Of a stretch of 64,000 nt of DNA, positions 2,146-46,437 are shown in pieces. Source of the DNA: an uncultured bacterium (GTDB lineage: Bacteria > Oederibacteriota > JAAXVQ01 > JAUVAV01); NCBI GenBank assembly GCA_963710755.1, contig CAVQBK010000003.1, positions 1,056,001 to 1,120,000 of the forward strand. The letters run 5' to 3'. The translations under genes and the position numbers were made by a program. How positions within the stretch are numbered: position 1 is the stretch's first letter; each line of letters opens with the position of its first letter. The notes beneath the pieces were generated by a model. It saw only the letters and a list, made by a program, of their open reading frames with translations. It ran no database searches and was not told the DNA's origin.

Positions 2146-2174
2146 TTGACAAAATGGACAATAAAGACTATAGT
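2146..2174 (+). promoter_or_regulatory. sigma70-type promoter upstream of the chemosensory operon
   Basis: TTGACA (2146-2151)-17 nt-TATAGT (2169-2174) in an AT-rich intergenic region. Confidence 0.7.
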
Positions 2175-2342: not shown

Positions 2343-2921
2343 ATGAAAACAATTGTCCTGCTGGGCATGATCTTAGGCTTGCTGTTTAGTGTTGGAACCA
2401 ATTTGTTGGTGAATGCCGAGGAGCCTAGAGCCGGGTCGTCACCAGCGGAGGTTAATCAGGATTCAGACTTTTTTCCCACCCATCCAGCACCGGAAAATTT
2501 ATTGGAAATAGAGCCAAGTACCCAATCTGTCCAAGCTGCTGTGCCCTCATCCGTGGAGTCCACCTCCACCGCCCAAGCAAAGAATATTAAAGCGGTAAAT
2601 CCCAAGCCCACGTCCACCGATACTATTATCAGGCAAAAAATTGCCATCGTAAGCCAAATAGACAATCATGAACTGATTACGGTTGGTGATGAAGTCTATT
2701 TGAAAACCAAACACCTGGCCGGTCTCGATTTCCACCGCCGTTATACTATTTATAAAGAGGTGGTGAAAGCCATGCCCGCCATCAGCAAACAACCGGTTCA
2801 CCTGGAGCAAGTGGTGGGCCAATTGAAGCTTTTGGATAAACGGCAGCCTTTGAGTTTGGCACGAATTACCACGGCCAGTGATATTATTAAACCGGGGGAC
2901 TTCATTTATATAGGACAATAA
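2343..2921 (+). CDS. Exported protein: signal peptide, Pro/Ser/Thr-rich linker, C-terminal beta domain resembling FlgT_C/TsaP C-terminus
   Basis: GGAGG RBS; hydrophobic N-terminus ending VNA-EE; GDEVYL...YTIYK...VGQLKL...ARITTASDIIKPGD. Confidence 0.55.
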   Translation: MKTIVLLGMILGLLFSVGTNLLVNAEEPRAGSSPAEVNQDSDFFPTHPAPENLLEIEPSTQSVQAAVPSSVESTSTAQAKNIKAVNPKPTSTDTIIRQKIAIVSQIDNHELITVGDEVYLKTKHLAGLDFHRRYTIYKEVVKAMPAISKQPVHLEQVVGQLKLLDKRQPLSLARITTASDIIKPGDFIYIGQ

Positions 2922-2922
2922 C

Positions 2923-3759
2923 ATGAGCGATATCCTGGACAGCTTTCATTTTGGGCGATTGATTCAAATGATCCGTAATGAGATTGGGTTGGATTGTTCT
3001 CATTATAAACCGGGTTATTTAAAACGTCGGGTGGCGGTGCGTATGCGCGCTACGCAATCACAGGACTATCGGGCTTATGAAAAAATACTGGCGTCCAACC
3101 GGGAAGAATATGACCTGTTGCTGGACCGCCTGACGATTAATGTGTCCCATTTTTTCAGGGATGTTACGGTTTTCGAGGAAATGAAAAAAAGCGTACTTCC
3201 CCGCTTGGCACAAAAATCCTCGGTCCGTATCTGGTCCGCAGGCTGCGCTAATGGCGAGGAACCCTATTCCTTGGCCATGCTCTTTGACAAAGAATTTCCC
3301 AAACATAAACATTGGGAGATATTGGCTACTGATCTAGATCCTAATTGCCTGCTCCGGGCCAAGGTAGGCCGGTACAAGCTCCAATCGCTGGTGGAAACAC
3401 CACCAGCGTACAAAGCCCGTTATTTCCATCAGGACGGCGAATTTTGGGATGTGAATCCTGAACTCAAAAAAAAAATAAAGTTTAGGGTGCTCGATCTGAC
3501 CAGCGATATGCCCAGGGAAAGAATCGACATGATCCTGTGCCGTAATGTGATGATTTATTTTATGCCTTTGCTTCAGGACCGTCTTTATGAAGGGTTTTAT
3601 GACATTCTCAAACCTAATGGTTTTTTAGTATTAGGTAAGACCGAAACCATGCTGGGAGAACAACGGCTCAAATTCGAGTCTGTTAACGGCCGGGAACGCA
3701 TCTACCAGGCCAAGGCGGATATTCTACCCGCTAAACACGAGGGCAGCACGCATGGATAA
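2923..3759 (+). CDS. cheR: Chemotaxis methyltransferase CheR
   Basis: YKPGYLKRR, LTINVSHFFRD, RIWSAGCANGEEPYS, ILATD, CRNVMIYF, GFLVLGKTE. Confidence 0.95.
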   Translation: MSDILDSFHFGRLIQMIRNEIGLDCSHYKPGYLKRRVAVRMRATQSQDYRAYEKILASNREEYDLLLDRLTINVSHFFRDVTVFEEMKKSVLPRLAQKSSVRIWSAGCANGEEPYSLAMLFDKEFPKHKHWEILATDLDPNCLLRAKVGRYKLQSLVETPPAYKARYFHQDGEFWDVNPELKKKIKFRVLDLTSDMPRERIDMILCRNVMIYFMPLLQDRLYEGFYDILKPNGFLVLGKTETMLGEQRLKFESVNGRERIYQAKADILPAKHEGSTHG

Positions 3760-4939
3760 TATTCAAAACCATCTCAACCTGGGCCTGGCCTTTACCCAAA
3801 CCAGGCAGTATGACAAGGCTATCAAGGAATATGAAAAAGCCTTGATTATTGACCCAACGGACACGGCAGCTTTGTTTCAGCTGGGGAGCCTATATGCCCA
3901 AGCCGGTCAATACGAGGTGGCGGTTAAAACCTGCCGTCAGGTGCTGGAGATGGCACCCGGTCATCAGCAGGTGCATGCCAAGCTGGGGATGCTCTACAGT
4001 AAAACCGGTCAATTGGAAGAGGCGATCGAGGCTTATCATCAGGCTATCAGTCTCCAGGCCAAGGATCCCTCACTGCATAACAGTCTGGGCGATGTGTATT
4101 ATAAATTAGGAAAAGCATATGAAGCCAAGGCTGCTTATCTTGCTGCGCTAGCCATCAATCCCAACCTTTCGGAAGTTCATTTCAAACTGGGTTATCTCCA
4201 CGAGAGCCAAGGTCATTTTGAAGAAGCAGTGGGAGAATATGAAGCTGCGTTACGCATAAATCCCAAGCATGCCGGCATTCATAATATTATTGCCAGCCTG
4301 AAAGCCAAGATGGGCAACTTGGAAGATGCGGAAACAGCATTAGGAAAAGTATTGGAACTTAATCCCCAAGACAGCACGGCCTTGCATCATTTAGGACAAT
4401 TGCTGATCAAGGGCCAGCGTCTGGAGGAAGCAGCGGAGGTGATGGAGCGCGTCTTGCAGCTGCGCCAGCATGATTTGGAAACCAGAAGCCAGTTAGGGCA
4501 GCTCTATGCCAAACTGGGGCAAAAAGAAAAAGCCATCCATCAGTTCCAAACAGTGCTGAAAGAGGCTCCGGAGGAAGGGCAAGTGCAGAAAATGCGAGCC
4601 TTTATTTATGATCTTGAAAATAACGTGGAACAAGCTGATCGTGCTTATCAAGACGCCATTGCCCACGCTCCCCAGGATCTGAGTTTGGTGGAAGGCCGTG
4701 CCAATTTTTTATATCGGGTGGGTGATTATCTTAAGGCGGTGGAAGCGTTGACCCAACTGCTTATCCTGGACCCCGGTCATGCCGAAGGTCATTTGAAGCT
4801 GGGCAATATCTATTACAAACAACAAGCCCGGGAACAGGCCCTGGACGCCTGGAAAAAATCCCTGGCCCTTGATCCTAATAATGAAATTTTGAGAAACAAC
4901 ATCAAATTTGTTGAAGGAACGCGCAATGGGGTACATTGA
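3752..4939 (+). CDS. Tetratricopeptide-repeat protein (about 11 TPRs, no other domain)
   Basis: Continuous 34-aa periodicity LG..Y...G..EEA...Y..AL.I.P; overlaps cheR stop. Confidence 0.9.
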   Translation: MDNIQNHLNLGLAFTQTRQYDKAIKEYEKALIIDPTDTAALFQLGSLYAQAGQYEVAVKTCRQVLEMAPGHQQVHAKLGMLYSKTGQLEEAIEAYHQAISLQAKDPSLHNSLGDVYYKLGKAYEAKAAYLAALAINPNLSEVHFKLGYLHESQGHFEEAVGEYEAALRINPKHAGIHNIIASLKAKMGNLEDAETALGKVLELNPQDSTALHHLGQLLIKGQRLEEAAEVMERVLQLRQHDLETRSQLGQLYAKLGQKEKAIHQFQTVLKEAPEEGQVQKMRAFIYDLENNVEQADRAYQDAIAHAPQDLSLVEGRANFLYRVGDYLKAVEALTQLLILDPGHAEGHLKLGNIYYKQQAREQALDAWKKSLALDPNNEILRNNIKFVEGTRNGVH

Positions 4940-5570
4940 ACAGCATCAGGAAAAGTCTCTGGGCCAGCTGTTACTGCAGAGCGGAAGAATTAATCAAGAA
5001 CAGTTAAACCAGGCTCTGACCGAACAAGAGCGGGCGGCCGAGCCTTTGGGCAAGACCCTGGTGCGTCTGGGCTATGCCCGGGAAGAAGATATTTTACAAG
5101 TACTAAAAGGGCTGTTGGTGGTCACCTTCACCCTGGCCAATGAATACTTCGCTTTTGAAGCGCTGTATGTGCGTGAGATCATTCGCTATCAGCCCTTGAA
5201 TAAATTACCACGCATGCCTGAGTATGTGGAAGGCTTGCTGCGCCACCGGGAAGCGGTGCTGCCGGTCGTCAATTTGACCTTGTTGCTCTGCCATCGGACC
5301 AGTCCGGTTACGGAAACGACCCGGATCATTATTATCGAGATTACAGGTCAGCTTTATGGCCTGCGGGTGGATACGGTGGAGGCGGTCGTGCAGTTGCCCA
5401 TGAATAATATCGAGACCACGCCCAGCACCCTAAAAGGCATCAATCCAAAATTTATTTACGGTGTAGGTAAGGTGGCCAATCGTCTCCTGACGGTGGTGCA
5501 TTTGGGCAATCTTTTTAATGCCGTCAATGTGCCAACATTAGATTCCGGGAACATGGGAGCAAGGGAATGA
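4926..5570 (+). CDS. cheW: CheW adaptor with N-terminal MshEN-like domain
   Basis: SLGQLLLQSGRINQEQLNQALTEQ-5 aa-PLGKTLVRLGY; CheW: VTFTL..EYFA...VREII...LPRMPEYVEGL...GLRVDTVEAV. Confidence 0.85.
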   Translation: MGYIEQHQEKSLGQLLLQSGRINQEQLNQALTEQERAAEPLGKTLVRLGYAREEDILQVLKGLLVVTFTLANEYFAFEALYVREIIRYQPLNKLPRMPEYVEGLLRHREAVLPVVNLTLLLCHRTSPVTETTRIIIIEITGQLYGLRVDTVEAVVQLPMNNIETTPSTLKGINPKFIYGVGKVANRLLTVVHLGNLFNAVNVPTLDSGNMGARE

Positions 5571-7780
5571 GCGAACCCGAAGAGGTTCAAAACAGCCGTG
5601 AATTTGAGTATGGCATCGATCAGAATGATGCCTCGGCGCATAATAATTTGGGTGTCTTTTATTACTCCAAGGGTATGTACGTGGAGGCCATTAAGGAATT
5701 CAAACGGGCTTTGGAGATTGACCATAATCTGACCCAAGCCATGGAAAATCTACAGGCGGTGAATAAACACACCGGTATATATGATCGCGCCATCGGAGCT
5801 TACCAGCGTGCTATTGAATTGTACCCTGAAGATGCGGATGCTCATTACAATTTAGGCAACGCCTTTCGTTACACCGGCCGTTATGAAGAAGCTATTGCTG
5901 AATATCAGCAGGCGGTGGATATCACACCGTCTCATCTCTTTGCCATCAATGCCTTGGGGTTGGTATACAAAAATTTAGGACGTTTTGACGATGCCATAAA
6001 CGTGCTGGTCAAAGCCATTGCCGCCTCTCCACATTTTGCGGATTTGCGTAATACCCTGGGTGAGGTTTATTACAACAAGGGTCTTTACGACGAGGCCATC
6101 AAGGAATTTACCACAGCCATCCAGATAAATCCCGATTTTGCCGTGGCCCACTACAACCTTGGGTTCGCTTATGGCGACAAAGGCATGAATCAGGAAGCGG
6201 AAAAGGAATTTGCCATGGCCGTGGAGATCAATCCCGGCTACATGCAGTCTTCCACCAATCTGGCCATCGATTATTATAAAAAAGGGGAAGGTGTCAAACC
6301 GGAACCTGAATTTTCAGTGCCCAAATTTCAAGAATCCGATCCCGCCGCAGCCTACCAGGAGATGGGCAAAGCCTATCGTCTTAAAGGTTTGCTAAACGAA
6401 GCGGTTCAGCAATATCAGAAAGCCTTGGCAGTTAAGCCTCAGAGCGCGGAGCTGCATAACATTCTGGGAGAAATTTACTTTGACATGAAAATGCTGGCCG
6501 ACGCTCTGACGGAATTTCGTAAGGCCATTGAGCAGGATGCCACCTTTGCCCTGGCTTATATCAATGCCGGCGTGCTATATCGTCATCAAGGTTTGTACCG
6601 GGAAGCGGAAGAACAGTTCAAGCGCGTACTGCATTACGATCCGGACAATGTGCGCAGCCATTATGAACTGGGCGTGGTTTATCACAAGCAAGGCAAGGCC
6701 CAGGAAGCCATCCATGAGATTGAATTGGCCATCAACAAAAATCCCCACTATGCGGATGGGCATTATCAACTGGGTATTTACTATTACCGTCTCAACCAAT
6801 ATGACCAGGCCATCACCGAATTCCGCCGTGCTATCGAACTCTCCCCCTTGTACAGCCAGGACAGCGAAGCCAATATTTATCTGGGGTTGGCGCTGGCGGA
6901 CAAAGGCCGGTTTGAAGAAGCCATTATTGAATATCAAAAAGCTTTGGCCCTGGATCCGCAAAACGCCGTAGCACATAATTCTCTGGGCATGGCCTATAAG
7001 AATATCAGCAATTACGACGATGCCTTGGAAGAATACCGCAAAGCCATCGTCCTCAATCCTCAGTACGCCAAAGCCTTTAATAATTTAGGTGTGATCTATT
7101 ATCAGAAAGGCATTTACGACAAAGCCATTGAGGAGTTCACGCGGGCTTTGGAAATTGATCCTGAATATCTGACCGCCCAAAAAAATTTGGTGGCGGCCTC
7201 CAAGAAAAAGGACATCTTCAAAGAGGCCATCGAACGCTTGCAGGCGGACATTCAGTCCAATCCCAACAATGCCGCAGCCTATTATGACCTGGCCAATGTT
7301 TATCGCAATACGGACCGTTTTGAAGAAGCCATCGAAGAATATAAAAAAGCACTGAAGATCAAGCCTGATTATGTCGAAGCTTGTACTAACATGGGATTGA
7401 TCTACAAGAAGCTCAATCAACCCGAGCTGGCGTTGAAAGTGTTGTTGGAAGCGGTAGCCATCAATCCCACTTACCCCGACGCTCACTATTATCTGGGGGA
7501 AGTGTATTTGCAAAAAAAATTACTGGATGAATCCGAGGTGGAATACTTGCGCACCATTGATCTGAACCCCAAGCATATCGAGGTTTATGACCGTCTGGCT
7601 ACCATCTACAGCATGCGCAACTGGTGGGACGAGGCTATCGCCACCTGGGATCACTTTATCCAGATCGCGCCTAATACGGAAACGGCCTTACGGGCGGCGG
7701 AGAAGATGCGCTCGGCCCAGGACTGGCTGGAACGATTTGAGTATTCGCCCGGTGCCAATCATCGCCGGCTGATTATATAA
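5567..7780 (+). CDS. Large TPR protein (about 18-19 repeats in two blocks)
   Basis: Regular AHNNLG..Y..KG.YDEAI.EF..A..I.P repeats; ATGA overlap with cheW. Confidence 0.9.
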   Translation: MSEPEEVQNSREFEYGIDQNDASAHNNLGVFYYSKGMYVEAIKEFKRALEIDHNLTQAMENLQAVNKHTGIYDRAIGAYQRAIELYPEDADAHYNLGNAFRYTGRYEEAIAEYQQAVDITPSHLFAINALGLVYKNLGRFDDAINVLVKAIAASPHFADLRNTLGEVYYNKGLYDEAIKEFTTAIQINPDFAVAHYNLGFAYGDKGMNQEAEKEFAMAVEINPGYMQSSTNLAIDYYKKGEGVKPEPEFSVPKFQESDPAAAYQEMGKAYRLKGLLNEAVQQYQKALAVKPQSAELHNILGEIYFDMKMLADALTEFRKAIEQDATFALAYINAGVLYRHQGLYREAEEQFKRVLHYDPDNVRSHYELGVVYHKQGKAQEAIHEIELAINKNPHYADGHYQLGIYYYRLNQYDQAITEFRRAIELSPLYSQDSEANIYLGLALADKGRFEEAIIEYQKALALDPQNAVAHNSLGMAYKNISNYDDALEEYRKAIVLNPQYAKAFNNLGVIYYQKGIYDKAIEEFTRALEIDPEYLTAQKNLVAASKKKDIFKEAIERLQADIQSNPNNAAAYYDLANVYRNTDRFEEAIEEYKKALKIKPDYVEACTNMGLIYKKLNQPELALKVLLEAVAINPTYPDAHYYLGEVYLQKKLLDESEVEYLRTIDLNPKHIEVYDRLATIYSMRNWWDEAIATWDHFIQIAPNTETALRAAEKMRSAQDWLERFEYSPGANHRRLII

Positions 7781-7822
7781 ATCGGGACGCCTGAATTTTA
7801 CAGGTGCAGCCTTGGAGAGACG

Positions 7823-8161
7823 ATGAAGTTGATTAAGTGCATTATTCAACAAAACAAACTGGAGACCGTCAAGCAGACCCTGTTGGAACAAGGCGTACAG
7901 GGCATGACGGTCTATGAAGTGAAAGGATTTGGCATTCATCGTGCCCAATTAGAGCACAAAGCTAGTGGCAATTACCTGGTTGAATTCCAGCCGCGGGTTA
8001 TGTTAGAACTGGTGGTGCCTGACGAACAGACCGCCTCTTTAATCAACTTAATCACAGCGGTGGTGCGTTCCGGGCGTCTGGGGGACGGGAAAATATTCGT
8101 TCTGCCCGTGGAAGAGGTGATTCGTATCCGGACAAATGAGCACGGCAACGCAACCATATAA
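7823..8161 (+). CDS. P-II family signal transduction protein with divergent T-loop
   Basis: 112 aa; GMTVYEVKGFG, GRLGDGKIFV, RIRTNE; GGAGAG RBS. Confidence 0.92.
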   Translation: MKLIKCIIQQNKLETVKQTLLEQGVQGMTVYEVKGFGIHRAQLEHKASGNYLVEFQPRVMLELVVPDEQTASLINLITAVVRSGRLGDGKIFVLPVEEVIRIRTNEHGNATI

Positions 8162-8190
8162 GCATACTCAATCAAAGAGAGGAGAATACC

Positions 8191-8562
8191 GTGGCATCAA
8201 AAATCCTTATTGTTGACGACGCATCCTTTATGCGCATGATGCTTCGTAATATCTTAACCAGTCATGGCTATGAGATTGTGGGGGAAGCCGAGAATGGAAT
8301 TCTGGCCATTGATGCCTATCAGCGGCTCAATCCTGATATCGTGCTCATTGATCTCATCATGCCCGAGATGGGCGGCATCGAGGCGGTTAAAAAGATCATG
8401 GAGCTCGATGGCCAGGCCAAAATTATTATTTGCAGCGCCATGGGGCAGCAAGCCCTGGTGGTGGAAGCCATGCAAGCCGGCGCCAGAGATTTTATCATCA
8501 AGCCCTTCCAGCCGACCAGTGTCGTGGAGGCGATCCAAAAAGTTGAACATGAGAAGGAGTAG
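8191..8562 (+). CDS. cheY: Single-domain response regulator CheY (1)
   Basis: ILIVDDASFMRMML, DLIMPEMGG, CSAMGQQ, FIIKPF; GTG start after GAGGAG. Confidence 0.92.
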   Translation: MASKILIVDDASFMRMMLRNILTSHGYEIVGEAENGILAIDAYQRLNPDIVLIDLIMPEMGGIEAVKKIMELDGQAKIIICSAMGQQALVVEAMQAGARDFIIKPFQPTSVVEAIQKVEHEKE

Positions 8563-8567
8563 CCAAC

Positions 8568-9209
8568 ATGAATGATCCCAGCGAAATCAATCAGTTCTAC
8601 CGGGACGCTTTGCAGGAACTGGGCAATATTGGGGCGGGTAATGCCGCCACGGCCTTGTCGCAAATGGTGGGACGGACCATCGGCATGTCGGTGCCCAAAG
8701 TCATGATCGTGCCGGTGGAGGAAGTGCCTGAGCTGGTCGGCGGTGTGGAGGAAATTGTGGCCGGCATCTATCTGGAAGTCTTCGGTGACCTGCCTTCGAA
8801 AATATTAGTTACTTTTCCCCATAAGAATTTGGTGCTCTTGACGGATATGCTGCTGGGCAACAACCTGGGGTCCCAAACCCTGATGAACGAGATGAAACTT
8901 TCGGCCCTTAAAGAACTGGGCACCATTCTATCCGGGGCCTATTTGAACGCCTTGGCCAAGTTTTTAGATCTGCGTATGATTCCGTCCGTCCCGGCCCTGG
9001 CCATTGACGTTATGACCGCGATTTTGGAAACCATCCTGGTAGAAATTTCCCAGGAGACCCAATACGCGCTCATGCTTCAAACTGAGATTATTGAAACCGA
9101 GACTAAAATAACGGGAACCTTCTTTTTGATTCCCGAACCGGGAACATTGGACACGATTGTGAAATCCATTGCCAAAGCTGCTGGGGTGATCGATGCCGGA
9201 ACGAATTAA
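8568..9209 (+). CDS. cheC: CheY-P phosphatase CheC
   Basis: DALQELGNIGAGNAATALSQM; second site SALKELGTILSGAYLNAL; PSVP. Confidence 0.93.
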   Translation: MNDPSEINQFYRDALQELGNIGAGNAATALSQMVGRTIGMSVPKVMIVPVEEVPELVGGVEEIVAGIYLEVFGDLPSKILVTFPHKNLVLLTDMLLGNNLGSQTLMNEMKLSALKELGTILSGAYLNALAKFLDLRMIPSVPALAIDVMTAILETILVEISQETQYALMLQTEIIETETKITGTFFLIPEPGTLDTIVKSIAKAAGVIDAGTN

Positions 9210-9690
9210 GGTTGGAATGGCTTCTTGGAAATTGGCCCGCGATGGTGACTTGCTGGTAACCTTTGGGTTGGGATCCTGTGTGGGGTTGGCGTTGTGGGAC
9301 AAGTCCACCAAGGTGGCCGCCATGGCCCATGTTATGTTGCCTGACTCCAAGCAAATGCATTTTCGCCAGGAAGTCAATCCAGCCAAGTTTGCCGACACCG
9401 CCTTGTCGATCATGCTCAACCGGCTGGAAAAAATGGGCATTCCCAAAGAGCGGTTATGTGCTAAAATCGTCGGCGGCGCCAATATGTTTGCTTTTGACAA
9501 CAAAGCCAGTCACTCGGGGATGAGCATTGGGGCGCGAAATGTGGCGGCCGTTAAAAGCATCCTCAAGGAGGAAGGCATCCCCTTGAGTGCGGAAGACACG
9601 GGCGGCACGGTGGGACGCTCCCTGGAATTTTCCTCAACCGATGGGTTGATCCGGGTACGCACCGCTTTAACGGGCGAGCGGGTAATATAA
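9193..9690 (+). CDS. cheD: Chemoreceptor glutamine deamidase CheD
   Basis: GLGSCVG (catalytic Cys), AHVMLP, KFADTA, AKIVGGANMF, IGARN, EDTGGTVGR. Confidence 0.95.
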   Translation: MPERIKVGMASWKLARDGDLLVTFGLGSCVGLALWDKSTKVAAMAHVMLPDSKQMHFRQEVNPAKFADTALSIMLNRLEKMGIPKERLCAKIVGGANMFAFDNKASHSGMSIGARNVAAVKSILKEEGIPLSAEDTGGTVGRSLEFSSTDGLIRVRTALTGERVI

Positions 9691-10227
9691 ATGTACGAGA
9701 AAAAGGAAGCCAAAAACGAATTTAAAATGGTGGTCTTTCGCCTTGGGGACGAAGAGTTTGGTGCGCCCATCAATCAAGTGCATGAGATTCTGCGGTTGGT
9801 GGAAATAACACGTGTTCCCCGGGCTCCCAAGTTTATTGAAGGGGTAATCAATTTAAGAGGACGCATCATCCCGATTATTGATCTGCGGCGGCGCTTTGAT
9901 CTGCCCATCAAAACGGCGGAGAATAAGCAACGCATCATGGAAGTGGAAGTGGACAACCAAATCTTGGGCATGATTGTCGATGAGGTTACCGAGGTTTTAA
10001 GGATTCCCGTGGATGCAGTGGAATCGGCACCTCGCATGATTGCCGATATTTCAGGGGAGTATTTGGCGGGCATTGCCAAACTGCCGGGAAGGATTTTGAT
10101 TATGTTGAATTTCGACAAAATTTTATCGGAGCAAGAAACGCTTCAGATTGAACAAGCGTCCATGGATAGCCTGCCAGGTGCCGTGTCACCGGGATTGCCA
10201 GAACATCAAAACCAGGAGGAGCGCTAA
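9691..10227 (+). CDS. cheW: CheW adaptor (canonical)
   Basis: VVFRLGDEEFG, VPRAPKFIEGVINLRGRIIPIIDLR, GMIVDEVTEV. Confidence 0.95.
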   Translation: MYEKKEAKNEFKMVVFRLGDEEFGAPINQVHEILRLVEITRVPRAPKFIEGVINLRGRIIPIIDLRRRFDLPIKTAENKQRIMEVEVDNQILGMIVDEVTEVLRIPVDAVESAPRMIADISGEYLAGIAKLPGRILIMLNFDKILSEQETLQIEQASMDSLPGAVSPGLPEHQNQEER

Positions 10228-10592
10228 TGCCAGCCAGGATCCTCATCGCCGACGATGCTGCTTTTATGCGGGTCATGATCAAGGGAATTCTGTCCAAGCA
10301 GAACTACGAAATCGTAGGGGAAGCCAAAGACGGAAAAGAAGCCGTGGAATTGTACAAGAAACTCAAACCCGATCTTACTACCATGGACATCATTATGCCC
10401 GAGGTCAATGGGATAGAAGCGGTCAAAGAAATTATAAAGGAAGATCCCAATGCCTTGATCATCATGTGCAGTGCCATGGGGCAGCAAGCCATGGTGATTG
10501 AAGCGATCGCGGCCGGCGCTAAAGATTTTGTGATCAAACCATTTCAACCTCCCCGGGTGTTGGAAGCGGTCGAGCGCGCCTTGGCGAAATAA
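10227..10592 (+). CDS. cheY: Single-domain response regulator CheY (2)
   Basis: ILIADDAAFMRVMI, TMDIIMPEVNG, CSAMGQQ, FVIKPF. Confidence 0.92.
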   Translation: MPARILIADDAAFMRVMIKGILSKQNYEIVGEAKDGKEAVELYKKLKPDLTTMDIIMPEVNGIEAVKEIIKEDPNALIIMCSAMGQQAMVIEAIAAGAKDFVIKPFQPPRVLEAVERALAK

Positions 10593-10612
10593 GCCGGGTT
10601 GCTGGGCTCCTT

Positions 10613-11704
10613 GTGAACAGTCAACGTCTTATCCGAGTGCTGGTGGTGGATGATTCCGCTTTTATGCGTAAGACCATCAGCAACATCCTCAATCAAGCCG
10701 AAGACATTGAAGTCATCGCCACTGCCCGTGATGGCTTGGAAGGCATCCAGAAAGTCACCGATTATCATCCTGACGTCGTTACCATGGACATTGAAATGCC
10801 CAATTTGCAGGGATTGGAAGCTTTGGGTTATATCATGAGCGAATGTCCCACGCCGGTGGTGATGCTTTCAGCCTACGCTGCTGAAGGCGGTGAAAAAACC
10901 ATCAAGGCTCTGGAATATGGGGCCGTGGATTTTATTGCCAAGCCTTCGGGACCCATCAGTCTGGATTTAAATGTGGTGGCCCAGGAATTGGTGGCCAAGG
11001 TCAGAACCGCCAGCCGGGTGGATACACGGCGCCTTAAATTTTTGGATCTGGAAAAAATCCCCACTCTTCCCAGAAACATCACCATGCCGACCAAGGGTCA
11101 CAAGGCTGTGGTCATTGCCAGTTCTACCGGCGGGCCGCGCGCCCTCTATGAGATTGTTCCCAAATTACCGGCAGATTTTCCAGCGGCCGTGTTGATTGTG
11201 CAGCATATGTCCTCGGGATTTACCAAGTCCATGGCCGAGCGGCTTAATCTTGTGTGTGCCTTGCCTGTCAAGGAAGCCCAGGAAGGCGATGTCATCCTAC
11301 CGGGAAAAGTGTACATTGCCCCCACCAACTACCATATGGCCATCGTCGTGCAGAAAGATCAGGAAGTAGTGACCCTTAACCAGGGCCCGCCGCGCAACAG
11401 CGTTCGCCCGGCTGCCGATGAGACCATGGAGGCCGCCGCCCGTATCTACGGTCCTAATTGCCTGGGCGTCGTGCTTACCGGTATGGGACACGACGGCACG
11501 GTGGGTGGCCAGGCGATTAAGCGGCGAGGCGGTCTACTGTTGGCGGAAGACGAATCCACTTGTGTGGTGTTCGGTATGCCCAAATCCATTATCAAGACCG
11601 GTCTGGTCGACGGCGTTTTTCCCATTCAGGATATGGTTGATAAAATTATAAGCTATGTTACCATGTTGGGATCAGAACACTCTGGCAAGAGGAGCAGACC
11701 ATGA
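10613..11704 (+). CDS. cheB: Chemotaxis methylesterase CheB (REC + esterase)
   Basis: VVDDSAFMR, MDIEMP, ASSTGGP, VQHM, LTGMGHDG, VVFGMP. Confidence 0.96.
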   Translation: MNSQRLIRVLVVDDSAFMRKTISNILNQAEDIEVIATARDGLEGIQKVTDYHPDVVTMDIEMPNLQGLEALGYIMSECPTPVVMLSAYAAEGGEKTIKALEYGAVDFIAKPSGPISLDLNVVAQELVAKVRTASRVDTRRLKFLDLEKIPTLPRNITMPTKGHKAVVIASSTGGPRALYEIVPKLPADFPAAVLIVQHMSSGFTKSMAERLNLVCALPVKEAQEGDVILPGKVYIAPTNYHMAIVVQKDQEVVTLNQGPPRNSVRPAADETMEAAARIYGPNCLGVVLTGMGHDGTVGGQAIKRRGGLLLAEDESTCVVFGMPKSIIKTGLVDGVFPIQDMVDKIISYVTMLGSEHSGKRSRP

Positions 11705-12672
11705 TCATCGTCACCGGCGGAGCCGGTTTTATCGGCAGCGCTATGGTATGGAAACTAAATCAACAGGGGCGCCAAGACTTGTTAATCGTGGACGCTCTGG
11801 ATCAGAGCGACAAGTGGAAGAATCTGGTCAATCTCAGCTTTGAGAGTTATCTCGATCGCCGCGAGTTTCTGGAAAAAATCAACAATGACGCCCTGCCCAA
11901 TCACATCGAGGCCATTGTGCACATGGGTGCCTGCAGTGCCACTACCGAACGGGACAGTGACTATCTGATGCGCAACAATTACCAATACACCCGCCGTCTG
12001 GCAGAGTGGGCCTTGGGGCATCAGGTTCGTTTTATTTATGCCAGTTCGGCAGCCACCTACGGTGCCGGTGACCTGGGTTATGGAGATGATCTGCCCACCA
12101 CGCTCAAGTTGAAGCCATTCAATATGTACGGGTACTCCAAACATTTACTGGATCTGTGGGCCATCCGTTCGGGGGCTATCTCCCAGATGGCGGGCTTGAA
12201 ATTTTTTAATGTATACGGCCCCAATGAATATCACAAAGAGGATATGCGCAGCGTGGTGCACAAAGCTTTTGGCCAGATCCAGCGCCAGGGCAGCGTCAAT
12301 CTCTTCAAGTCCTACCATCCCGACTATGCCGATGGGGAACAGGTGCGCGATTTTGTTTACGTAAAGGACGTTGTGGAAGTGATGTGGTGGCTGTTGCAGA
12401 ACCGTGAGGTCGGCGGCTTATTTAACCTTGGTACCGGCCAGGCTCGTTCCTGGAAAGACTTGGTGCAGGCGGTATTTACGGCCATGGCCAAACCGGCCCG
12501 TATCGATTTCATTGATATGCCGGCGGGCCTGCGCGACCGCTATCAATATCATACTCAGGCCAACATGAGCAAATTGCGTCAGGCCGGTTTTACAGCTGAA
12601 TTCCAGTCCCTGGAAGACGGCGTGCGCGATTATGTACAATCCTATCTTTTGAATCCAGATCCCTATCTCTGA
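11701..12672 (+). CDS. rfaD: ADP-L-glycero-D-manno-heptose 6-epimerase
   Basis: MIIVTGGAGFIGS, HMGACSATTE, YASSAATYG, YGYSK, FFNVYGPNEYHK, YQYHTQA. Confidence 0.95.
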   Translation: MIIVTGGAGFIGSAMVWKLNQQGRQDLLIVDALDQSDKWKNLVNLSFESYLDRREFLEKINNDALPNHIEAIVHMGACSATTERDSDYLMRNNYQYTRRLAEWALGHQVRFIYASSAATYGAGDLGYGDDLPTTLKLKPFNMYGYSKHLLDLWAIRSGAISQMAGLKFFNVYGPNEYHKEDMRSVVHKAFGQIQRQGSVNLFKSYHPDYADGEQVRDFVYVKDVVEVMWWLLQNREVGGLFNLGTGQARSWKDLVQAVFTAMAKPARIDFIDMPAGLRDRYQYHTQANMSKLRQAGFTAEFQSLEDGVRDYVQSYLLNPDPYL

Positions 12673-12754: not shown

Positions 12755-14251
12755 ATGTCCAAACTGTTGGTTGTTGATGATGAACTGGCTATCAGGGAAT
12801 CGCTGGCCATTATTTTAGAAGACCGGGGCTACGAAGTGATGACAGCCGCTGATGCCGAGGAAGGCTGGTCGCTGCTGGAGCAGGCGGCTTATGATCTGGT
12901 CCTGACCGATCTGCTGATGCCCAAGGTTGATGGATTTGAATTCATAAAACAAATCCGTTTAAAATACGGGCGCCGTATTCCTATCATTATTCTCACGGCC
13001 CATGGAACCGTGGAGATCGCCTCCCTGGCCATCAACGAGGCGGTGGATGATTTTATCGTCAAACCCTTTGAAGTTAAGATCGTCACCGAAGCCGTACAAT
13101 ACGTGCTGCAAAAAAACCGGCGCTTGGCTAAAAAAACCCATCATGAAGCTGCCGGTAGTCACGGCAATTCCTCCTTTGAAAAAAAATTCTTTGGCCTCTC
13201 CAGTCTGGATGAGATTAGTAAACGCATCAAGGAAACAAGTGAAGTGGATGAGATTGGGGATACCTTATTCGATCAGGTGCGGGCCACCCTGAAACCGGAC
13301 CGGGGCTTGCTGGTGCTCGCACCACAAGATCTGCAGCAGTATCAGTACCAGCGGTTGTGCACGGCCGAGCGGCTGGCTTCAGGGCCGCCGTCCAGTGTGG
13401 ACCAAGGCATCCTGGCCTGGGTCCAAAAAAATCAAAAACCGCTGCTGATTGAGGACATGGTCAGCAGCAGCCAATATAGGGCCTGTTTCAACGGTATGCT
13501 TAATGCCGGCTCATTATTGTCCATGCCCTTTTTGCGCAAACAGCGTTTGTTGGGGGTTATCATTCTCTACCGCCAGCCCGGGGGCGAGCCCTTTGGGGAA
13601 GAAGACATGAAATTTTTGTCGGTGCTCTCCTGTATGACCACGGTTGCCCTGGAAAATCTTGAAATTTACGATGAGATGAAAAATTATTTTAACGGCACCA
13701 TTCGGGCCCTGATCACGGCCGTGGAGACCAAGGATGCCTTTACCTTTGGTCACAGCGCCCGGGTGGCCCGTTACTCGTTGATGATTGCCAAGGCATTGAA
13801 CATGGAGGAATTGATACAGCGCCGTCTCGAGTATGTGGCGCTGCTGCATGATATTGGCAAGATCGGTATTCCGGAAAACATACTGCAAAAAAAATTACCC
13901 CTGACCGACGAGGAATGGGCCGTAGTGCGTCATCATCCCGAATTGGGTGAGAATATTGTGCGGTCCATTCATTTTCTACCGGAAGGCGCCAGCGGCGTCC
14001 GTCACCATCATGAATATTATGACGGCAGCGGCTATCCCGATGGCTTGCAAGGCGAGGGCATTCCTTTGTTTGCCCGTATCATTGCCGTGGCTGATGCCTA
14101 CGATGCCATGCATAGTGATCGGCCCTACCGCAAAGGCATGGACCATGTCAGTGCCCTGGAAGAATTGGAACGGTTCAAAGGCGCTCAGTTTGATCCTCAA
14201 TTGGTGGACCTGTTCATCCAGGCCTTGCAATTAAAAGAAATGGTGGCTTAA
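12755..14251 (+). CDS. REC-GAF-HD-GYP cyclic-dinucleotide phosphodiesterase
   Basis: LVVDDE/TDLLMP/KPF receiver; GAF (LLSMPF..LLGVIIL..F..ED); GHSARV, LLHDIGKIG, HHHEYYDGSGYP, ADAYDAM..DRPYR. Confidence 0.93.
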   Translation: MSKLLVVDDELAIRESLAIILEDRGYEVMTAADAEEGWSLLEQAAYDLVLTDLLMPKVDGFEFIKQIRLKYGRRIPIIILTAHGTVEIASLAINEAVDDFIVKPFEVKIVTEAVQYVLQKNRRLAKKTHHEAAGSHGNSSFEKKFFGLSSLDEISKRIKETSEVDEIGDTLFDQVRATLKPDRGLLVLAPQDLQQYQYQRLCTAERLASGPPSSVDQGILAWVQKNQKPLLIEDMVSSSQYRACFNGMLNAGSLLSMPFLRKQRLLGVIILYRQPGGEPFGEEDMKFLSVLSCMTTVALENLEIYDEMKNYFNGTIRALITAVETKDAFTFGHSARVARYSLMIAKALNMEELIQRRLEYVALLHDIGKIGIPENILQKKLPLTDEEWAVVRHHPELGENIVRSIHFLPEGASGVRHHHEYYDGSGYPDGLQGEGIPLFARIIAVADAYDAMHSDRPYRKGMDHVSALEELERFKGAQFDPQLVDLFIQALQLKEMVA

Positions 14252-14294: not shown

Positions 14295-14324
14295 TTGACA
14301 CTTTTTCCCGGCCCGTGCTAGAAT
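14295..14324 (+). promoter_or_regulatory. sigma70-type promoter of recA
   Basis: TTGACA-18 nt-TAGAAT with TGn extended -10. Confidence 0.6.
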
Positions 14325-23814: not shown

Positions 23815-23928
23815 ATGGCTACAAAAAAGGCTGTAAAAAAAGTAGCGAAGAAAGCCGTGAAAAAGGCTGTAAAAAAAGTAGCGAAGAAAGCAGTAAAAAA
23901 GGTAGCTAAAAAAGCAACAAAGAAATAA
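23815..23928 (+). CDS. 37-aa Lys/Ala/Val repeat protein, histone H1-tail-like (absent from ORF track)
   Basis: MATKKAVKKVAKKAVKKAVKKVAKKAVKKVAKKATKK*; synonymous codon variation between repeats; purine-rich RBS; terminator follows. Confidence 0.85.
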   Translation: MATKKAVKKVAKKAVKKAVKKVAKKAVKKVAKKATKK

Positions 23929-25825: not shown

Positions 25826-26409
25826 TCCCGACCGGAGCAGATATTATTATGCCAGGGACGCCTACGGCAGCCCCGACCGGAGCAGATATTATTATGCCAG
25901 GGACGCCTGCGGCAGCCCCGACCGGAGCAGATATTATTATGCCAGGGACGCCTACGGCAGCCCCGACCGGAGCAGATATTATTATGCCAGGGACGCCTGC
26001 GGCAGCCCCGACCGGAGCAGATATTATTATGCCAGGGACGCCTACGGCAGCCCCGACCGGAGCAGATATTATTATGCCAGGGACGCCTACGGCAGCCCCG
26101 ACCGGAGCAGATATTATTATGCCAGGGACGCCTACGGCAGCCCCGACCGGAGCAGATATTATTATGCCAGGGACGCCTACGGCAGCCCCGACCGGAGCAG
26201 ATATTATTATGCCAGGGACGCCTACGGCAGCCCCGACCGGAGCAGATATTATTATGCCAGGGACGCCTACGGCAGCCCCGACCGGAGCAGATATTATTAT
26301 GCCAGGGACGCCTACGGCAGCCCCGACCGGAGCAGATATTATTATGCCAGGGACGCCTACGGCAGCCCCGACCGGATAGGATATTATAAGAAAGGGACGC
26401 CTACGGCAG
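25826..26409. repeat. Tandem array A: 12 x 45 bp + 1 x 44 bp terminal variant
   Basis: Unit CCCCGACCGGAGCAGATATTATTATGCCAGGGACGCCTRCGGCAG (G in units 2 and 4); last unit CCCCGACCGGATAGGATATTATAAGAAAGGGACGCCTACGGCAG. Confidence 0.97.
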
Positions 26410-45486: not shown

Positions 45487-46437
45487 CGGCAGCCCCGACC
45501 GGATAAGATATTATAGGAAAGGGACGCCTGCGGCAGCCCCGACCGGATAAGATATTATAGGAAAGGGACGCCTGCGGCAGCCCCGACCGGATAAGATATT
45601 ATAGGAAAGGGACGCCTGCGGCAGCCCCGACCGGATAAGATATTATAGGAAAGGGACGCCTGCGGCAGCCCCGACCGGAGCAGATATTATTATGGCAGGG
45701 ACGCCTGCGGCAGCCCCGACCGGAGCAGATATTATTATGGCAGGGACGCCTGCGGCAGCCCCGACCGGAGCAGATATTATTATGGCAGGGACGCCTGCGG
45801 CAGCCCCGACCGGAGCAGATATTATTATGGCAGGGACGCCTGCGGCAGCCCCGACCGGAGCAGATATTATTATGGCAGGGACGCCTGCGGCAGCCCCGAC
45901 CGGAGCAGATATTATTATGGCAGGGACGCCTGCGGCAGCCCCGACCGGAGCAGATATTATTATGGCAGGGACGCCTGCGGCAGCCCCGACCGGAGCAGAT
46001 ATTATTATGGCAGGGACGCCTGCGGCAGCCCCGACCGGAGCAGATATTATTATGGCAGGGACGCCTGCGGCAGCCCCGACCGGAGCAGATATTATTATGG
46101 CAGGGACGCCTGCGGCAGCCCCGACCGGAGCAGATATTATTATGGCAGGGACGCCTGCGGCAGCCCCGACCGGAGCAGATATTATTATGGCAGGGACGCC
46201 TGCGGCAGCCCCGACCGGAGCAGATATTATTATGGCAGGGACGCCTGCGGCAGCCCCGACCGGAGCAGATATTATTATGGCAGGGACGCCTGCGGCAGCC
46301 CCGACCGGAGCAGATATTATTATGGCAGGGACGCCTGCGGCAGCCCCGACCGGAGCAGATATTATTATGGCAGGGACGCCTACGGCAGCCCCGACCGGAT
46401 AAGATATTATAGGAAAGGGACGCCTGCGGCAGCCCCG
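45487..46437. repeat. Tandem array B: 4 x 44 bp + 16 x 45 bp + 1 x 44 bp, same family as array A
   Basis: 44-bp CCCCGACCGGATAAGATATTATAGGAAAGGGACGCCTGCGGCAG at 45493-45668 and 46389-46432; 45-bp CCCCGACCGGAGCAGATATTATTATGGCAGGGACGCCTGCGGCAG at 45669-46388. Confidence 0.97.

Follow-up and report, generated by a model that had tools for sequence, protein, structure and literature searches.

Class F1 chemosensory systems are defined, in the Wuichet-Zhulin scheme (S1 Table of PMC9321776), by the auxiliary proteins CheC and CheD and by 44H receptors. The F1 systems of Thermotoga maritima, Bacillus subtilis and euryarchaea combine CheC and CheD with receptors of 44H length and a CheA without a REC domain, and control of flagella through FliM is typical of the class, though not universal. 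Two other described systems are close to the one treated here. In the Dif system of Myxococcus xanthus (DifA/C/D/E/G), DifA has 413 amino acids (aa), two transmembrane (TM) segments and the 44H length (PMC3945109), and PMC5544727 places Dif downstream of the pilus machinery and of the MshEN-motif ATPase PilB, with control over exopolysaccharide. In the ACF class, CheR is fused to TPR domains (FrzF and CheR3, CheR4 and CheR6 of M. xanthus). Here we describe a che operon of F1 type in a 64-kb window of bacterial DNA (G000:C3:1056001-1120000, the whole stretch analysed; source genome G000, 98% complete; coordinates without a contig name are those of the window). The chemosensory classes were defined largely from cultured phyla, and the operon has parts that are absent from the class rows compared: a stand-alone fusion of MshEN to CheW, two free TPR proteins (TPR1 and TPR2) and a P-II protein.

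The names on homologues place the lineage with candidate division FCPU426, Candidatus Firestonebacteria and Candidatus Goldiibacteriota. Our literature searches found no description of this operon; subscription papers were mostly outside their coverage, so absence from print is not established. For FCPU426, PMC13277936 remarks on high flagellar gene loss, and 10.1101/2025.06.24.661292 mentions chemoreceptors.

A split operon of F1 type

The cluster, twelve ORFs on the + strand (2343-11704), is the larger, 5' part of one F1-derived operon that has been broken between cheB and cheA in this order. The initial annotation had instead proposed a distinct chemosensory class lacking CheA and receptors, while allowing that both might be encoded elsewhere. 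Within the 64 kb, tblastn with this genome's CheA and two of its MCPs found neither, as the annotation had said. The genome as a whole has a single cheA (G000:C3:837685-839721), about 219 kb from the cluster, and six scattered MCPs over the Pfam cut-off, one of them 17 kb upstream of the window. The cluster is thus a split fragment of an F1 operon, the outcome that the annotation had itself named as telling against its class. Genome-wide, cheR, cheB and cheD are each present once and cheW twice, which indicates that this is the only chemosensory system of the genome.

The break is evident from gene order in relatives. We compared 54 loci (L078-L131) with a full TPR2 orthologue, found by scanning 185,579 species genomes, two weak matches having been dropped. 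The intact order is cheR, TPR1, MshEN-cheW, TPR2, P-II, cheY, cheC, cheD, in some loci an MCP, cheW, cheY, cheB, cheA and another cheC gene (cheC2), followed by a gene of ftsA-like or GGDEF-like type and then by dprA and topA. The gene after cheB is cheA in 30 of 44 loci and hldD in 11, and the locus ends there in the remaining 3; a receptor gene lies 3' of cheD in 13 of 47. In G000 the distant cheA is followed by cheC2, the ftsA-like gene, dprA and topA, that is, by the end of the intact order. The cheA half of three further genomes (G007, G009 and G011) lies, as in G000, behind pilM-Q, aroC and their neighbours and keeps the same four genes; the break is therefore old and common to the order. 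The FtsA-like ATPase has a ThiS/TGS-like tail (L012:15532-17667, equivalent to G000:C3:840531-842666) and is conserved after cheC2 in 11 loci; in 14 others its place is taken by a degenerate GAF-GGDEF gene, whose product has RxxD and lacks GGDEF in 14/14 full-length reads.

Gene content and receptor length assign the operon to F1. CheC and CheD are both present, and the receptors have the 44H length, with a tip-to-end arm of 155-166 aa in 12 of 13 and of 146 aa in one. The best PDB match of the receptor is 2ch7, a 44H receptor of T. maritima; the C-arm aligns without gaps and the N-arm with one gap of seven residues. The operon receptors of relatives are 420-437 aa long and have a TM hairpin and no sensor domain (a cytoplasmic receptor was considered, and ruled out by the hairpin in hydropathy); in this genome two MCPs clearly and one probably have such a hairpin, all unlinked to the cluster. 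CheA has HPT, P2, dimerisation, HATPase and CheW domains, with one HPT and no REC. Its best NCBIfam model, CheA_Halo, scores under the cut-off, and its nearest named relatives outside the lineage are from Synergistetes, Clostridia and Methanosarcinales. In a quick tree, which had F1 references only and gave long-branch warnings, the outside F1-type CheAs form one group apart from those of the lineage (SH-aLRT 97), and the latter sort by family. The ACF markers (CheA with REC, CheR fused to TPR, 40H receptors) and the Tfp markers (CheA with five or six HPT domains and REC, 40H receptors) are absent, since CheA has one HPT and no REC, CheR and TPR1 are separate ORFs and the receptors are of 44H length. 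The F9 markers, a double-signal-domain MCP and a triple CheW, are likewise lacking: there are two single-domain CheWs besides the P5 domain of CheA, and one signalling match per MCP.

Compared with other F1 systems, the operon differs in its fixed insert of TPR1, MshEN-CheW, TPR2 and P-II and in having two CheYs and two CheCs. It also lacks, by genomic proxy, the F1 trait of flagellar control through FliM. In architecture, the intact operons of relatives resemble Dif: their 44H receptor is short, at about 420 aa, and has two TM segments, and the order is receptor-cheW-cheY...cheA-cheC. A P2-containing CheA, a CheC phosphatase and connections with pili and with an MshEN domain are also shared. 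They differ in that CheR, CheB and CheD are encoded in the operon, whereas M. xanthus has no CheD and no dif CheR or CheB is listed in its table. They also differ in that MshEN is fused to CheW rather than belonging to PilB, and in the added TPR proteins and P-II. With the ACF class the operon shares the tie between TPR and CheR and an output that looks non-flagellar, but here CheR and TPR are separate proteins, CheA lacks REC and the receptors are 44H, not 40H.

The core genes of the cluster are cheR (2923..3759), the sole copy in the genome and without a fused TPR; cheY1 (8191..8562); cheC (8568..9209); cheD (9193..9690), also a sole copy; a canonical cheW (9691..10227); cheY2 (10227..10592); and cheB (10613..11704), with REC and methylesterase domains, whose end is the break point. 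The catalytic or phosphorylation-site motifs are intact in CheR, CheB, CheD, CheY1, CheY2 and the first E-x2-N site of CheC; the second CheC site reads ELGT. The ORF list and Pfam agree with the gene order first annotated, Pfam giving CheR, TPR, CheW, TPR, P-II, REC, CheC, CheD, CheW, REC and REC+CheB after a first ORF without a match. The gaps at successive junctions are +1, -8, -14, -4, +42, +29, +5, -17, 0, -1 and +20 nt; 6 of the 11 therefore overlap or abut, as had been noted for many of them, one leaves a single nucleotide between the genes, and no gap exceeds 42 nt.

The TPR, MshEN-CheW and P-II genes

The four additional genes are real parts of the operon, present phylum-wide and lost together with the che core. 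Among 99 genomes of the phylum, full-length MshEN-CheW occurs in 64 (68 matched, and rows covering both domains were kept) and TPR2 in 62; the added parts are retained in 16 families. One or the other is found in 69 genomes, hereafter carriers, and both in 57. CheA is matched in 67 of the 69 carriers, and only 6 of the 73 genomes with CheA have neither marker. Adjacency is fixed: TPR1 follows cheR in 44/44 loci, P-II follows TPR2 in 53/53 and cheY follows P-II in 49/49. In G021 (99% complete) and G051 core and additional genes are jointly absent, and the flanking genes (pilT-TPR, a small TPR gene, a tsaP-like gene, dprA and topA) are joined. This tight linkage and joint loss indicate that the operon is not an ordinary F1 operon. 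The identity of TPR2 is 75% among close loci and 43% across distant families, much as for CheA (43%), CheR (41%) and CheB (46%) in distant loci. The che block lies inside a pilus and competence gene neighbourhood and is separable from it.

Occurrence outside the phylum was judged from the TPR2 scan, which used two short patterns. A profile search with MshEN-CheW against 1.84 billion representatives was swamped by multi-CheW proteins and says little on range, both domains being covered in 3 of the best 150 matches; an ESM Atlas search with TPR2 returned generic TPR clusters and nothing else. CheAs from records titled Spirochaetia or proteobacterium nest among those of the phylum in the quick tree, and one 1.5-kb contig titled archaeon is probably mis-binned. 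Apparent fusions of P-II and CheW in one high-GC locus (L067) proved to be frame artefacts.

TPR1 (3752..4939, 395 aa) lies directly 3' of cheR, and TPR2 (5567..7780, 737 aa) directly 5' of the P-II gene. Both are soluble proteins that match TPR-like Pfam families only (best 25 families) and have no hydrophobic segment, which bears out their description as pure TPR proteins. By its adjacency to cheR, TPR1 may be the free-standing counterpart of the TPR domain in CheR-TPR fusions. TPR2 and P-II are both missing from the operon in G093, G088 and G089, and in G093 (97% complete) the P-II orthologue is absent genome-wide, though its congener G036 has it. This co-loss, together with the P-II residues described below, suggests that TPR2 and P-II form an optional unit that would report ATP/ADP and not nitrogen. 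Predicted as a complex with a P-II trimer, TPR2 (residues 80-737) scored 0.00, which speaks neither for nor against such a unit.

The MshEN_N-CheW fusion (4926..5570, 214 aa) starts at an ATG at 4926, with an in-frame TTG upstream at 4908. Its MshEN part was missed by Pfam and scores 55.7 bits against the NCBIfam model NF053729 (cut-off 38); phmmer matches it to PilF GSPII-B and MshE. In the predicted structure residues 12-61 form four helices joined without a linker to CheW at its first strand. The superposition on MshE (5htl_B) covers 49 columns at 0.6 Å, and that on the c-di-GMP-bound domains of MshE and PilF gives 0.6-1.0 Å. With MshE of Vibrio cholerae (5htl) and GSPII-B of Thermus thermophilus PilF it shares the four-helix MshEN_N fold, the 53-residue spacing, the Leu clusters, four Gly and the first Gln; it differs from both in the absence of MshEN_C, the linkerless fusion to CheW and the replacement of Arg9, Arg38 and Gln61. 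Set against the motif as given in PMC5013675, the equivalents of Leu10/25/29/39/54/58, the four Gly, Gln32 and the 5-residue spacer are kept. That source lists MshEN with CheA and CheX, and the sole mention of CheW in its supplement concerns the CheA P5 domain. The annotated input of a nucleotide messenger through MshEN is plausible at the level of the adaptor from the domain match, and c-di-GMP binding by the fusion is likely but not assured, as both motif Arg and the second Gln are replaced. Links to c-di-GMP that do not depend on this domain are the degenerate GAF-GGDEF gene after cheC2, an HD-GYP gene that stands before cheR in 11 of the 54 loci and, in this genome, the REC-GAF-HD-GYP gene downstream of cheB. 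Two tandem membrane-anchored GGEEF proteins, judged from their sequence to be likely diguanylate cyclases, are encoded about 4-7 kb upstream of the window (L013:13208-16136).

The P-II paralogue (7823..8161) keeps the nucleotide-binding motifs and has Gln39->His, Lys58->Arg and Arg38->Ile. Across 61 orthologues, the B-loop and C-terminal residues of the nucleotide site, Gly35, Asp88-Gly89-Lys90, Arg101 and Arg103, are present in 61/61; Lys58 survives in only 13 of them and Gln39 in 41, whereas Arg38 is found in no orthologue, and the T-loop is variable. The protein belongs to the same family as GlnB/GlnK, has the nucleotide-site residues, and differs from them in its place in a che operon, its altered 2-oxoglutarate residues and the replacement of Arg38 in all 61. 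According to PMC6908673, Lys58 and Gln39 coordinate 2-oxoglutarate; K58N was tested there and K58M cited, and K58R is not covered. The GlnK-like copies of the genome retain both residues. Of the energy and nitrogen status that P-II had been annotated as conveying, an energy (ATP/ADP) input is plausible from the nucleotide motifs, and a nitrogen input is doubtful because Lys58 is kept in 13 of 61 only. Five further P-II genes lie at G000:C6:193064-195651, C7:38498-38839 and C7:57094-57815.

Output and competing explanations

We propose that the system is a split F1 operon with c-di-GMP and ATP/ADP as inputs and pilus activity or a c-di-GMP-dependent surface lifestyle as output, a proposal that as a whole could about equally well hold or fail. 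The genome's one CheA, encoded 219 kb away, is its kinase, and the six scattered MCPs are its receptors. The core would be standard: a receptor-CheW-CheA complex would phosphorylate CheY1, CheY2 and CheB, while CheR, CheB and CheD would serve adaptation and, judging from the intact motifs, the two CheCs would dephosphorylate. MshEN-CheW may act as an additional coupling protein, with c-di-GMP setting where it sits in the array or how it acts there, TPR1 as a partner of CheR, and TPR2 with P-II as an adenylate-sensing unit entering array signalling. The output, the weakest step, would be type IV pilus activity together with a c-di-GMP-linked surface lifestyle, by analogy with Dif in Myxococcus. 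A TPR protein of M. xanthus, SgmX, reportedly activates pili and would be a precedent. More tentatively, and with some doubt, the operon may represent a vertically inherited, phylum-specific subclass removed from flagellar control, with an array gated by c-di-GMP (through MshEN-CheW) and by energy charge (through P-II docked via a TPR protein) and driving either type IV pili or a filament-less motor.

If this last reading is true, our literature searches show no earlier case of a P-II protein permanently built into a chemosensory pathway. Should the inferences hold, the coupling protein would be a point of entry into the array for second-messenger and energy signals, and rewiring away from flagella would be possible for a pathway of F1 type. 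The steps are open to testing with small purified proteins, and culture of the organism is not required.

Several observations weigh against the proposal. The genomes of the phylum share ancestry, and the counts given here are therefore not independent. In MshEN-CheW, Arg9 is replaced by Ser, Arg38 by Pro and Gln61 by Leu or Met, and Arg occurs at either motif position in 0/44 orthologues (38 by pattern, 6 by eye). Arg9 is named as important in PMC5013675. The relaxed motif given there admits Pro in place of Arg38, but neither Ser in place of Arg9 nor Leu/Met in place of Gln61. Each additional gene is dispensable somewhere, TPR2 being missing in 7 carriers and MshEN-CheW in genus g9, and family f3 keeps P-II without TPR2 and with a shortened T-loop. 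On the output side, the pilT-TPR and tsaP-like genes stay beside dprA where the che block is absent, and the pilus/competence neighbourhood may be an insertion site for the block. A PilT-family gene occurs in 96/99 genomes, which fits a pilus output and does not discriminate, and this genome has no pilT-TPR and a single PilT with an altered Walker B region. None of the named best 120 matches of CheA or of the receptor is from Myxococcota. Finally, 46 of the 69 carriers have a canonical FliM over the TIGR01397 cut-off, and the N-terminal CheY-binding peptide is present in 30/30 of those read (23 by pattern, 7 by eye).

The PilT-TPR fusion, which scores over the TIGR01420 cut-off, is 760-790 aa long (L068:13606-15963, L061:3388-5688, L159 and L161-L163) and is widespread in the phylum, also without the che system. 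All 15 genomes of this order have exactly one PilT-family match each; in G000 (G000:C3:824477-825544) the Walker B region reads VVMMSD, against IILVGE in a relative's PilT-TPR.

The FliM counts would fit a different main target, the filament-less flagellar basal body with motor and export apparatus that is present in most of the phylum, with phosphorylated CheY acting on its FliM; in this order the target would have been lost, leaving another or a residual output. In carriers of other families the canonical FliM is part of such a cluster, which holds flgBC, fliEFGHIJ, motAB, fliLMY, export genes, flhFG and a PilZ gene. We consider this explanation unlikely, although it deserves weight. Of 61 genomes with canonical FliM, 15 are without the module, 14 of these also without CheA, and the peptide is kept there anyway (G021, G018). 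In this order, 14/14 carriers have no canonical FliM, yet CheY1 and CheY2 remain 86-89% identical in close loci. Seven of the 14 have no FliG or FliM match (two are 100% complete; five were re-tested at E 0.01), and in the remaining seven FliM is divergent, with no N-terminal peptide in 6/6 read (G003 unread). These FliM data argue against the flagellar switch as the output in this order.

Phylum-wide, FliG is found in 75 of the 99 genomes, FliM in 68 and flagellin in 12. Many genomes have a basal body, a C-ring with peptide-bearing FliM, an export gate and MotAB and no flagellin (L134-L137, L139-L142; G027, G094, G021, G019, G018 and G037), and no flagellin was found at E<=0.01 in 5/5 near-complete genomes with the basal-body cluster. 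In the f9 and f13 clusters read, motA follows fliJ directly and there are no hook genes. We had considered fliG in non-flagellated relatives to be an orphan, which was ruled out as it belongs to a full basal-body cluster; an apparent tracking of the FliM match start with the presence of CheA was dropped when direct reading found the peptide in CheA-less genomes too.

The additional genes might also be passengers that are merely transcribed along with the che genes, or might form a pathway of their own, and in either case take no physical part in the array. There is a lineage in which each has been lost, and the phylum conserves gene order even where the genes are unrelated, as with dprA-topA and hldD. 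Against this, one member is itself a CheW, and the block lies inside the che core and vanishes with it while the flanks stay. The module without CheA is moreover found only in two genomes, which are 89-90% complete, and we regard this explanation as quite improbable.

A split F1 system that simply steers this genome's flagellum would fit the three flagellins, fliG, fliM/N, motAB and single CheA of G000, and the outside relatives of that CheA named above. The CheY-binding N-terminal peptide was absent from this genome's FliM by eye and from any frame of the genome by a pattern that missed 7 of 30 true variants. In flagellin-bearing systems FliM is without the peptide in 8/8 read, including second systems in G036 and G025 (G000:C3:462403-536374; L198-L204). 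Flagellin is present in 12 of the 69 carriers (10 of the 49 that are at least 90% complete) and thus lacking in 57. Since no FliM read from carriers of the order has the CheY peptide and so few carriers have flagellin, ordinary flagellar chemotaxis is unlikely, and we give it little chance as the account of this operon; the system probably steers something other than swimming. A TPR-scaffolded class without CheA and receptors, suggested by the lack of kinase and MCP in the 64 kb, is scarcely credible beside the genome's own cheA and MCPs and the unbroken operons of relatives, which include cheA and in 13 cases also a receptor gene.

Flanking genes and other features of the window

The first of the twelve ORFs (2343..2921) encodes an exported protein of 192 aa with a signal-like N-terminus by hydropathy, which had been counted as a component of the operon. 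In relatives a longer family is encoded before cheR, and it is the C-terminal domain of this family that the protein matches (hhalign 96.9%). The model of that longer family (pLDDT 92) has TsaP of Pseudomonas aeruginosa (6ve2_O, E 7e-7, TM-score 0.62) as its sole match under 1e-3. A local HMM of the family did not match the 192-aa protein in the genome at E 1e-3, and the link is one of profile-profile comparison. On this sequence evidence, and as the tsaP-like gene is kept where the che block is lost, we assign the protein to the flanking pilus genes as a truncated TsaP-like product and not to the che system.

The single promoter annotated ahead of the cluster corresponds to a sigma70-like candidate at 2146..2174 (+ strand, 11/12 consensus match), and the next equally good site on this strand is at 14295; the scan gave 30 sites where 15.5 were expected, which makes this consensus evidence only. 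Downstream, cheB overlaps by 4 nt an hldD-like NAD-dependent epimerase gene (11701..12672, +), which is not a che gene and stands in the place of cheA after the split. Two genes after cheB lies a gene for a REC-GAF-HD-GYP phosphodiesterase (12755..14251, +), found at this place in this genome only among the loci read and possibly on the cluster's transcript.

Elsewhere in the window, a DUF1284 gene (660-1145, - strand) lies between prfA and prmC and is conserved in the order. A short lysine/alanine-type repeat of 12/36 bp occurs at 23823-23925, and two apparently intergenic head-to-tail arrays of nearly the same 45-bp unit lie at 25827-26409 and 45487-46437, with 13 and 21 copies of 97-98% identity.

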